IMG/VR virus record: IMGVR_UViG_2671180577_000021
Origin: a virus
Taxonomy: Duplodnaviria > Heunggongvirae > Uroviricota > Caudoviricetes
DNA: 19,655 bases
Reading direction: 5' to 3' (one strand)
Each line of letters opens with the position of its first letter. Position 1 is the stretch's first letter. The position numbers were made by a program. Positions 3,001 through 6,000 of the stretch are shown here, in pieces.

Positions 3001-6000
3001 GTACAGAAGAATGGATGGGCGAACACAGTCGGTAAAAATAAACAATTTTAATGAACTGTTTGAACGGATCGATCACCAGGAATACCGACAAATTCTGGCT
3101 GAAACAGAGCAGGAGAACCATCTGAAAAAATTACGCGCCATGCAAAGGAGATAAACCGGTAAAGGTGTTCGCGATAAAGGTGAATATCGGCAATGAATAA
3201 CAATCCTCGCACTCGCGGGGATTTCTTTTATCTGAACTCGCTACGGCGGGTTTTGTTTTATGGAGACAAGAAATGTCAGATTTGGCTATGAAGGTTTTGA
3301 AATGGCAATCGACTGGCGATGTTGGCATCAGTAGCGCAACTCTTGCCTCAATCGCATGTGGACTGAAAAAGAATATCTATGGTCATCACTTCGGCGCTCC
3401 ACATGACGCAGCAGACTTCCGGCGATGCGTTGCACTTGTTGAGCAGATTCCAGAAATCAGAGATTCATTCGACAAGGTTGCAAAGCGCGTTCCGGCATTC
3501 AAAGGCATCCTCAACTAATGGGATTCCCTCGTCGCTCTGTTGAAGTCTGAAATGAAGATACACGGAAACAAAGCACCAGAGACTTACAGAAGAATTAGCG
3601 AGCTACGCAAGGACTAACCACAGCCTCACACTCAATGAGGCCTGTTCATTTCTCAAGATATCCAGACCTACCATTGCCGCATCAATGCGGCTTTTCTTGC
3701 GTGTAATTGCGGAGACTTTGCGATGTACTTGACACTTCAGGAGTGGAATGCACGCCAGCGACGCCCAAGAAGCCTTGAAACAGTTCGTCGATGGGTGCGC
3801 GAATGCAGGATATTCCCTCCTCCGGTTAAGGATGGAAGAGAGTATCTGTTCCACGAATCAGCGGTAAAGGTTGACTTAAATCGACCAGTAACAAGTAGCC
3901 TTTTGAAGAGGATCAGAAATGGGAAGAAGGCGAAGTCATGAGCGCCGGGATTTACCCCCTAACCTTTATATAAGAAACAATGGATATTACTGCTACAGGG
4001 ACCCAAGGACGGGTAAAGAGTTCGGATTAGGCCGAGACAGGAGGATAGCAATCACTGAAGCAATACAGGCCAATATTGAGTTGCTATCCGGGAACAGGCG
4101 TGAGTCACTGATAGACAGAATTAAAGGCGCTGACGCAATCACTCTTCATGCGTGGCTTGACCGATATGAAACAATCCTCAGCGAGAGGGGTATCAGGCCG
4201 AAAACTCTACTCGACTACGCCAGCAAAATCAGGGCAATCCGAAGAAAATTGCCGGACAAACCGCTCGCTGACATATCAACGAAAGAGGTGGCAGCAATGC
4301 TAAACACCTACGTAGCAGAAGGTAAAGCGGCTTCCGCAAAATTAATCAGGTCAACCCTTGTTGACGTTTTTCGTGAGGCAATAGCCGAGGGGCATGTGGC
4401 TACGAATCCGGTAACAGCAACCCGCACAGCAAAATCAGAAGTAAGGCGTTCAAGACTGACAGCTAATGAATATGTCGCGATTTACCATGCAGCCGAACCG
4501 CTCCCAATCTGGCTGAGGCTGGCAATGGATTTGGCTGTCGTTACAGGGCAGAGAGTAGGCGATTTATGCAGAATGAAATGGTCAGACATAAACGACAACC
4601 ATCTTCACATTGAGCAGGGTAAAACAGGGGCTAAGCTCGCCATTCCGCTGACGCTAACGATTGACGCGCTCAATATCTCATTGGCTGATACACTACAGAA
4701 ATGCAGGGAGGCCAGCGGCAGTGAAACAATAATTGCATCAACGCATCACGAACCGCTTTCCCCGAAAACAGTATCTAAGTATTTTACAAAGGCGAGAAAT
4801 GCATCTGGACTCTCATTTGATGGAGACCCGCCAACATTCCATGAACTGCGCAGCCTGTCGGCGAGGCTATACCGGAATCAGATTGGCGATAAGTTTGCTC
4901 AACGTCTTCTCGGGCATAAATCAGATTCAATGGCGGCGCGTTACAGGGACAGTCGCGGGCGGGAGTGGGACAAAATTGAAATATCATAATGGTTTTATTT
5001 TGATTAATAATGACCAGCGCACATTAACATATTGATAATTAATGAAATTTTTAATATACAACTTCCATGTCATAAGTTGTTGCAGACTGACTGCGCGCAT
5101 TCCGTTGTCAGTTTTCGTGGCGCTTCCGGTGTGGTAGATGACGTAACGCCCCATCCAGACCATTAAGTGCTGGGCATCGCCCTGATCGAAAAAAATCATA
5201 TCGCCAGGCAGCGCCTGGTTTATGTCCTGGCCAATAAACTGGCTGTTGTACTGAATCAAATTAATCGCGGTCACGTAGGGGCCGGTTTTCCCGTTCCCCT
5301 GATTCCAGTTTTGCGCCAGTTGACGCTGTCCAGGTGTTAGCGTCATCTCTGGCGGCAAATACTGGCTAGAGAAACCGTTACTTTTTAGCCATTTACTATC
5401 GTGAACTTTCAGCGTCTCGTTCGCCGCAAATCGCACCAGGCCCGCACAATCCTGCTGATACCAGCGTGGACTTGGCCCCTGGCGGAGCTGTTCTTGTGCA
5501 ATGCGTACAAACCAGGCGCGAAACAGCCCGGATTGTTCGACATTCAGCATTTCGCTATGGGCAACAACACAACACAGCCAGCAAATCAGCGCCAGCAGCC
5601 CGTGCCTCATAGCGGCTGCCAGGTTATGGGTAGCCACTGCCAGGCGGCACCGGGTTCCATCTGGGCCAGCTTCATGACATAACGCGGTTGTTGAGATAAA
5701 GCGTCCAGCTTCGGCATTAATAAAGTTTGTGCGGCGTTATAAAAAACCGGTTCGAGATTCTTCGGCAGACTGGTCAACGTTTCGTTACGCAGCAGTTTCG
5801 CCACGCCTTGTGGATTGATATAGAGCGGAACGATGCCATCAGTGGGTATTACATCCACCATTGCCGGGCGGTTTTTATTCAGTGTTTGCAGGGCGTTATT
5901 AACCAGCGTGTCATCGAGGGAGAAAAGCAGCGTTTTGTTTTGCATCGCCAGCGACACGCGGAAAAAATAATCCGACATTAATTGATCGGGTTGCGCCGCC

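Follow-up and report, generated by a model that had tools for sequence, protein, structure and literature searches.

Organization of the yfaT locus

The IMG/VR virus record IMGVR_UViG_2671180577_000021 is a 19,655-nt stretch of DNA (the whole of which is called the window below) in which a phage integration module, composed of an excisionase gene (xis), an integrase gene (int) and an attachment site (att), abuts the 3' end of the bacterial gene yfaT. The window is Escherichia coli chromosome: its left part is the early-left end of a lambdoid prophage, running from exo (253-933) through xis and int, all on the plus strand, and its right side carries yfaT, yfaA, gyrA, ubiG, yfaL, nrdAB and yfaE. 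Positions 3600-6000 are 100% identical to many O111 genomes, O111:H- strain 11128 among them, and the first 5.1 kb share 99.2-99.3% identity with O26-type strains. The segment 3723-5079 represents the attL of a lambda-like prophage of O26/O111-type enterohaemorrhagic E. coli (EHEC), namely its junction on the int side, shown in the order P'-C'-O-B. The original prediction had placed a lambda-family int/att module at a site other than that of lambda, in the 3' end of yfaT, and this location is confirmed: yfaT, a DUF1175 gene (Pfam PF06672), runs into the junction. Indeed, the gene has become a hybrid by insertion (4984-5637, minus strand). Comparison of the native and hybrid translations shows 192 native residues, followed by 25 phage-encoded residues that replace the native last 24; the annotation places the displaced yfaT 3' fragment at the far end of the prophage.

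Integrase and excisionase

The xis gene (3723-3941, plus strand) encodes an excisionase of 72 aa (PF07825, E = 4e-41) with one substitution relative to HK022 Xis and two relative to lambda Xis. The int gene (3919-4989, plus strand) is an intact open reading frame (ORF) encoding a heterobivalent tyrosine integrase of HK022 type (356 aa), identified from its Pfam domains and from protein alignments. An arm-binding domain (PF09003, residues 1-68, E = 7e-29), a SAM-like/central core-binding domain (PF02899/PF22022) and a catalytic domain (PF00589, E = 4e-41) are all detected above the cut-offs, and the catalytic set R-K-H-R-H-Y is complete (R212, K235, H308, R311, H333 and Y342).

The description of this protein as lambda-like at its N-terminus and diverged in its centre holds numerically: residues 1-55 are 100% identical to those of lambda Int, residue 56 is the first mismatch, and identity amounts to 57/63 in the arm-binding part, 74/106 (70%) over residues 64-169, 139/186 (75%) in the catalytic domain and 76% overall. 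The protein is, by contrast with its 76% to lambda, 98% identical to HK022 Int (348 of the 355 aligned residues), from which it differs by A137S, G234S, K261Q, G267S, T275K, E278D and D303N and at the C-terminus. At all remaining positions that separate HK022 Int from lambda Int, it is of HK022 type, including D99, P282, K283, K287 and R319, as well as R329, which was seen in the alignment. Positions 99, 282, 283, 287 and 319 reportedly make up a five-residue specificity list drawn up by Dorgai et al. in 1995. The role of N99D and H329R in HK022 versus lambda core specificity is documented (PMC10863862). At the nucleotide level, a megablast of positions 3600-5100 against phage records returned HK022, mEp235, mEp506, Gally, H19J and Stx1a-converting phages at 94-97.5% identity, and lambda, 434 and HK97 at about 78%. 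According to these alignments, the integrase is an HK022-type Int, and its lambda N-terminus with a diverged centre is the long-known lambda/HK022 mosaic and not a new divergence.

Furthermore, the Int protein of the Stx1a phage LC744181 is identical to that of the window at 355 of 355 residues, the two differing only in their ends (…IEIS* in the window and …IEIDK* in the phage). The attachment site of HK022 lies between torS and torT (PMC6814406), and O26 Stx1a phages have been reported at torS-torT (PMC10042803). The junction of LC744181 reads CAACTTA-TTCACCT-TAAGTGC (half-site, overlap and half-site separated by hyphens, here and below) and abuts torS. One Int protein is therefore found at two chromosomal sites, since LC744181, with an identical Int, sits at torS-torT. 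This bears directly on the proposal that the divergence of Int accompanied a new site specificity, as in HK022 relative to lambda. A lambda relative whose integrase had evolved a new core-binding specificity along with a new core would account for core-binding and catalytic regions only 70-75% identical to those of lambda behind 55 identical N-terminal residues, and for an overlap and one phage half-site unlike those of lambda. However, the entire divergence from lambda is the known lambda/HK022 difference, with 7 substitutions relative to HK022 Int and 0/355 relative to an Int that targets torS-torT, and the four half-sites described below fit the HK022 pattern. Because of the 355/355 identity to the Int of the torS-torT Stx1a phages, the change of specificity cannot reside in Int; this part of the earlier proposal is abandoned, and a newly evolved specificity is regarded as extremely improbable.

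The attL junction and the P' arm

The P' arm was predicted to carry motifs like those of lambda, and three arm-type Int sites in the lambda register, together with a consensus site for integration host factor (IHF), agree with this. P'3 (4986-4995, minus strand; AAACCATTAT, lambda: AAATCATTAT) overlaps the int stop codon and was identified by alignment with lambda and HK022 attP and by a consensus scan. P'2 (4997-5006, minus strand; TAATCAAAAT, lambda: CAGTCAAAAT) was assigned by position alone, from its lambda register in the alignments, and has 4 mismatches to the general arm consensus. P'1 (5007-5016, minus strand; TGGTCATTAT, lambda: AGGTCACTAT) was found by alignment and consensus scan. 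The IHF site H' (5025-5037, minus strand; TATCAATATGTTA) fits the consensus WATCAANNNNTTR and aligns with lambda H'.

The core, CAACTTCCATGTCATAAGTTG, occupies 5059-5079 and begins exactly 69 nt past the int stop codon, a spacing identical to that of lambda. Within it, the putative C' core-type half-site CAACTTC (5059-5065) is phage DNA, CAACTT being invariant in the six attP alleles aligned (6/6), and homology to HK022 and the Stx1a phages stops at 5064. The probable 7-bp overlap CATGTCA (5066-5072; TGACATG in P-O-P' orientation), across which strands would be exchanged, lies inside an 11-bp identity, CTTCCATGTCA (5062-5072), and the putative B core-type half-site TAAGTTG (5073-5079; CAACTTA on the other strand) is bacterial DNA within yfaT, contiguous with the yfaT 3' fragment in unoccupied genomes. 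The proposed core of lambda architecture, CAACTT-N9-AAGTTG, is thus present at the lambda spacing, but it is a hybrid attL whose right half-site, TAAGTTG, is bacterial; the accompanying statement that the central overlap differs from that of lambda stands. CAACTT-N9-AAGTTG with at most 1 mismatch is expected by chance 0.05 times per window. A chance palindrome at 5059-5079 was considered, and is ruled out by this expectation and by the exact lambda register.

The C-terminus of Int follows the att allele, ending in …IEIS or …IEI in the yfaT type, …IEIG in a fossil attP described below, …IEIDK in the torS type and …IEINK in two further types, at yehP and mdtA; the comparison covers 4983-4989 in the window and the matching positions in loci L026, L019 and L049. 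The C-terminus varies with the att allele because the stop codon overlaps the P'3 arm site. An outward promoter has been reported in the P' arm of HK022 (PMC6814406); by analogy, an equivalent promoter, if there is one here, would be directed antisense into yfaT.

The other prophage end, the empty site and the reconstructed attP

The far junction was located in O111 11128, which carries a 14-kb remnant, and in TW08637, which carries a 49.8-kb prophage. In both it reads …GGGTGTC CTTCCATGTCA GAAGGAGAGTAAATT…. Ahead of it lie yfaS and then the displaced last yfaT codons, and beyond it lies a P arm with P2 (GAGTCACAAT), H1, P1 (AGGTCACTAA), H2 and a sib terminator region. Arm sites are thus found on both sides of the 21-bp core: P'1-P'3 and H' in the window, and P1, P2, H1 and H2 at the other end of the O111 11128 element (locus L003). 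The same 21-bp core had been expected at the opposite boundary, but the full 21-mer, sought with at most 3 mismatches over 50 kb spanning the other end in O111 11128, was found only as the int-side copy. Taken at its word, the original prediction would be refuted by this result, but lambda-type recombination predicts such an outcome: what is shared is 11 bp, CTTCCATGTCA being the only sequence common to both prophage ends and recurring in attB and in the fossil attP. In window orientation, attL is CAACTTC-CATGTCA-TAAGTTG and attR is GTCCTTC-CATGTCA-GAAGGAG, from which attP is reconstructed as CAACTTC-CATGTCA-GAAGGAG and attB as GTCCTTC-CATGTCA-TAAGTTG. The sequences of the two junctions are precisely those of a reciprocal exchange over 11 bp of identity, and attB lies 24 codons before the end of yfaT.

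The empty site was also recovered, in agreement with the original prediction. Indeed, prophage-free examples carry the two host flanks as one uninterrupted sequence at 100% identity, and 5198 of the 5426 complete E. coli genomes have this sequence at 80% coverage or more; the yfaT junction is occupied in 176 genomes. The reconstructed attP is 80% identical to that of Gally, 78% to that of HK022 and 74% to that of lambda. A 19-mer of the attP core gave two matches (an archaeal metagenome-assembled genome and a Bacillus) in a collection with one genome per species, which is ill-suited to this question; they were taken as chance matches and not inspected. The half-sites agree with the HK022 type of the integrase. 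An association of D99 with C as the third base of the half-site is documented (PMC10863862), and a C is found at that position in the putative half-sites CTCCTTC and GTCCTTC; the bacterial half-sites GTCCTTC and CAACTTA fit the types nnCCTTn and CAACTTn, respectively. The att site of the yfaT prophage is not that of HK022: its overlap is not AGGTGAA (TTCACCT in window orientation) and its target is not torS-torT.

The yfaT element of O111:H- 11128 (L003, 35089-49397) is about 14 kb long and comprises nleA, nleG, Rha, lysis genes, Q, nin genes, xis and int. This remnant retains both att junctions and intact int and xis genes, and on sequence could still be excisable. The type III secretion system (T3SS) effector genes nleA and nleG adjoin the P arm, at the cargo end of the prophage (L003, 35661-36983; L005, 47644-49901).

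A fossil attP in O157:H7

The exact 21-mer of the reconstructed attP core, CAACTTCCATGTCAGAAGGAG, flanked by a P' arm and by the same P arm, is present in 12 IMG/VR contigs and 447 complete genomes. In O157:H7 TR01, it lies in a prophage adjoining the ompW-site prophage (region L019, 19829-22809; core 20894-20914), reads CAACTTC-CATGTCA-GAAGGAG and has both arms. The order inside this O157:H7 prophage is a truncated int pseudogene, attP and nleA, so that the linkage of nleA to the P arm seen in the yfaT prophage recurs. From this order, the int'-attP-nleA segment of O157:H7 looks like a fossil circular or tandem form of a yfaT-type phage that was captured by another prophage.

With both junctions and the fossil at hand, a one-off event can be weighed, in which an ordinary HK022-type phage with the TTCACCT overlap inserted aberrantly at a resembling yfaT sequence and has since been passed on by vertical descent. 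Lambda is well known to integrate at secondary sites, the occupied genomes are concentrated in related EHEC lineages, and the window Int is identical to that of torS-site phages, all of which would suit such an event. However, the phage side of the far junction is CATGTCA-GAAGGAG and not TTCACCT-AAAGGAT, both arms are about 20-25% diverged from those of HK022, the O157:H7 lineage independently contains an intact attP whose overlap is CATGTCA, and the two junctions correspond exactly to the reciprocal products of an exchange with 11 bp of identity. A single secondary-site insertion followed by vertical descent is therefore considered highly unlikely. In its strict form, namely insertion of the canonical HK022 attP, it is ruled out, as the new overlap is found both on the attR side and in the fossil attP.

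A mosaic breakpoint inside int

The first 1022 nt of int (3919-4940) show 0 nucleotide differences from the int of the torS-type Stx1a phage. From 4941 onwards, nucleotide comparison with the torS-type int reveals 7 silent changes at third codon positions and altered terminal codons, in a stretch that matches the O157 fossil attP lineage; the P' arm that follows is about 25% diverged from that of the torS-type Stx1a phage. The mosaic breakpoint is placed at about 4941, and the int 3' end (4941-4989, plus strand) belongs to the att allele. Because this breakpoint is sharp, with 0 differences before it and divergence after it, the int body and the att cassette have different histories. On the nucleotide comparison, the int body is joined to the att cassette by homologous recombination in the int 3' end.

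Furthermore, both kinds of prophage are found in one chromosome. In the O26 strain 97-3250, the torS-torT (Stx1a) and yfaT prophages differ at 1 position over 1265 nt of xis-int (L104, 1726-2995, and L105, 5290-6556), and the shared segment ends at int nucleotide ~1023, which is the same breakpoint. We infer that the joining plausibly took place by gene conversion between co-resident prophages, and the near-identity of xis-int in the Stx1a and nleA/nleG prophages of O26/O111 EHEC possibly has the same origin.

Integrases of one type with several overlaps

The overlaps associated with this integrase type were surveyed in IMG/VR loci whose Ints are at least 95% identical; 16 of the 80 loci were usable, most ending a few bases past int. 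Four overlaps are present among these 16: (i) TTCACCT, at torS-torT in integrated copies and in free attP, as in mEp235, (ii) CATGTCA, at yfaT, (iii) GATTTCA, inside yehP (L049, 2640-2660; the gene was identified by BLAST), and (iv) CCTTATT, upstream of mdtA in L042 and L064 (~2640-2660) and in attP form in L059. The Ints associated with GATTTCA and CCTTATT are 97-98% identical to the window Int. HK022 specificity residues are kept in all the Ints surveyed, except for R319L in the mdtA-site locus L064. A yehP junction was sought in the collection of complete E. coli genomes and none was found. NCBIfam gave no name for the integrase, for YfaT or for the gene at this third site. Elsewhere in the window, a 625-aa ORF (15409-17286, minus strand) lies antisense to nrdA (15499-17784, plus strand) and is presumably a spurious shadow ORF.

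How the prophage would be directed to yfaT

The 7-bp overlap of HK022 Int has been shown experimentally to be arbitrary, provided that it is identical in both partners (PMC7736782). On the simplest reading, Int is unchanged and the attP core sets the address. The favoured explanation, to which a probability of about 0.85 is given, is that an HK022-type Int/Xis pair, itself unchanged, would be sent to yfaT by a separate attP allele whose overlap matches yfaT, the att cassette and the int body forming a mosaic. In the manner of lambda and HK022, Int would contact the arm sites P'1-P'3 and, at the far end, P1 and P2 through its N-terminal domain, and four core half-sites (CAACTTn or nnCCTTn in type) through its core-binding and catalytic domains. 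With the arms bent by IHF, strand exchange would take place across the 7-bp overlap, which has to be identical in attP and attB. The address would be given by the attP core (CAACTTC-CATGTCA-GAAGGAG, against CAACTTA-TTCACCT-AAAGGAT in HK022), CATGTCA matching the yfaT sequence between half-sites acceptable to an HK022-type Int. Homologous recombination would have joined the att allele, which takes in the last ~50 nt of int, to an xis-int body identical to that of the co-resident torS-torT Stx1a prophage.

Several observations weigh against this explanation. The exact window-type attP was seen in no sequenced free phage: a search of 50,697 phage records with the reconstructed attP yielded nothing close (best 80% for Gally and 78% for HK022), and the exact window-type P'/core/P junction, searched as a 28-mer, gave 0 matches in metagenome contigs. 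The O157 fossil attP is accompanied by another P' arm and by an int of greater divergence (~83% nucleotide identity); it backs the core but not the particular arm combination of the window. The arm sites P'1 and P2 are each unlike their counterparts in HK022 and lambda. The limits of the 7-bp overlap, and with them the exact cleavage positions and the half-site assignments, are inferred from the register with lambda and HK022, the data confining the crossover only to the 11-bp identity. Finally, most of the 176 genomes with an occupied site are related to O26/O111, and very few integration events could lie behind all of them.

The same absence of a free attP of window type, in the phage records and in the metagenome contigs, would also suit a decayed, immobile prophage end in which the features described are relics, as would the reduction of the O111 11128 element to a 14-kb remnant and the existence of related copies with insertion sequences and pseudogenes, terminase and J included. 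Against decay, the int and xis reading frames are uninterrupted and no catalytic residue is missing, even the O111 11128 remnant has kept both att junctions intact, and the co-resident torS-site Stx1a prophage encodes an Int/Xis pair identical to this one. The module may be active at present. Decay, a tentative but by no means negligible alternative, concerns the activity of the module and not its identity, and is compatible with retargeting through the attP allele.

A wider and more speculative scheme, which may be summarized as one enzyme with many addresses, can be proposed from the overlap survey. A near-invariant Int/Xis pair would serve at least four sites through attP cassettes that start in the last ~50 nt of int, and the Stx1a and nleA/nleG prophages would cross-excise, coupling the mobilisation of toxin and effector phages. 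We regard this scheme as possible, although somewhat doubtful. In EHEC, near-identical Int/Xis pairs are encoded by the Stx1a prophage and by the NleA/NleG (T3SS effector) prophage, and cross-excision is possible; if it does occur, induction of either prophage would supply an Int/Xis pair able to excise the other one.

More generally, a lambda-family phage can switch its chromosomal address without a change of integrase, by swapping the attP core and arms, and an integrase sequence, even one that is 100% identical, is no predictor of the insertion site in the lambda/HK022-type family. Since the address is switched by a swap of attP with the same Int, the arbitrary nature of the HK022 overlap, established in the laboratory, is exploited in nature. 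In practical terms, CRIM-type HK022 tools might be aimed at yfaT, at yehP or at the site upstream of mdtA by using natural attP alleles.

Comparison with known systems

Two genome surveys already count yfaT among the protein-coding genes that integrated elements disrupt. Bobay et al. (2013) name prophages as the disrupting elements, and TIGER (Mageeney et al. 2020) proposes the gene for 'regulated gene integrity'; in the passages of these two papers that were consulted, no att core and no link between yfaT and an HK022-type Int were found. 

The closest known system is that of HK022, which shares with the yfaT prophage an Int 98% identical, an Xis one residue apart, the same layout of arm sites, IHF sites and sib, a C' half-site that starts with CAACTT and a C half-site of the type nnCCTTn. 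The two differ in the overlap (CATGTCA here and TTCACCT in HK022, with 1/7 positions shared), in the C half-site (CTCCTTC and ATCCTTT, respectively), in arms that are ~20-25% diverged, in the end of Int (…IEIS and …IEIDK) and in the target (the yfaT 3' end and the torS-torT spacer). Lambda shares the three-domain heterobivalent Int with its first 55 residues identical, the 21-bp core with a 7-bp overlap, the C' half-site starting with CAACTT and an equal spacing of the int stop, P'3-P'1, H' and the core. Its attB is located between gal and bio. It differs in its Int (76% protein identity, residues D99, P282, K283, K287 and R319 being of HK022 type here), in its C half-site (GCTT-type in lambda, CCTT-type here), and in overlap and target. 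The Stx1a phages of O26:H11 (LC744181, for example), which have an identical Int over 355 residues and identical int DNA over 1022 nt and occur in the same chromosomes as the yfaT prophage, differ by the HK022 overlap, the torS-torT site and another allele of the last ~50 nt of int and of the attP arms.

Lambda saf (site-affinity) mutants also reach a new target with an unchanged Int, through a match of the overlap. The engineered use of HK022 Int at human 'attB' sites (Kolot/Yagil laboratory; PMC7736782) follows the same principle, with Int unchanged and the overlap matched beside tolerable half-sites. The yfaT case differs in being a natural variant, fixed in a prophage lineage and with diverged arms. 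In summary, yfaT as a target, the Int type and the overlap principle are already known, and the locus is a tidy natural example and not a new kind of system; its points of interest are natural retargeting through the overlap only, a mosaic breakpoint inside int, and one Int/Xis pair for toxin and effector phages.

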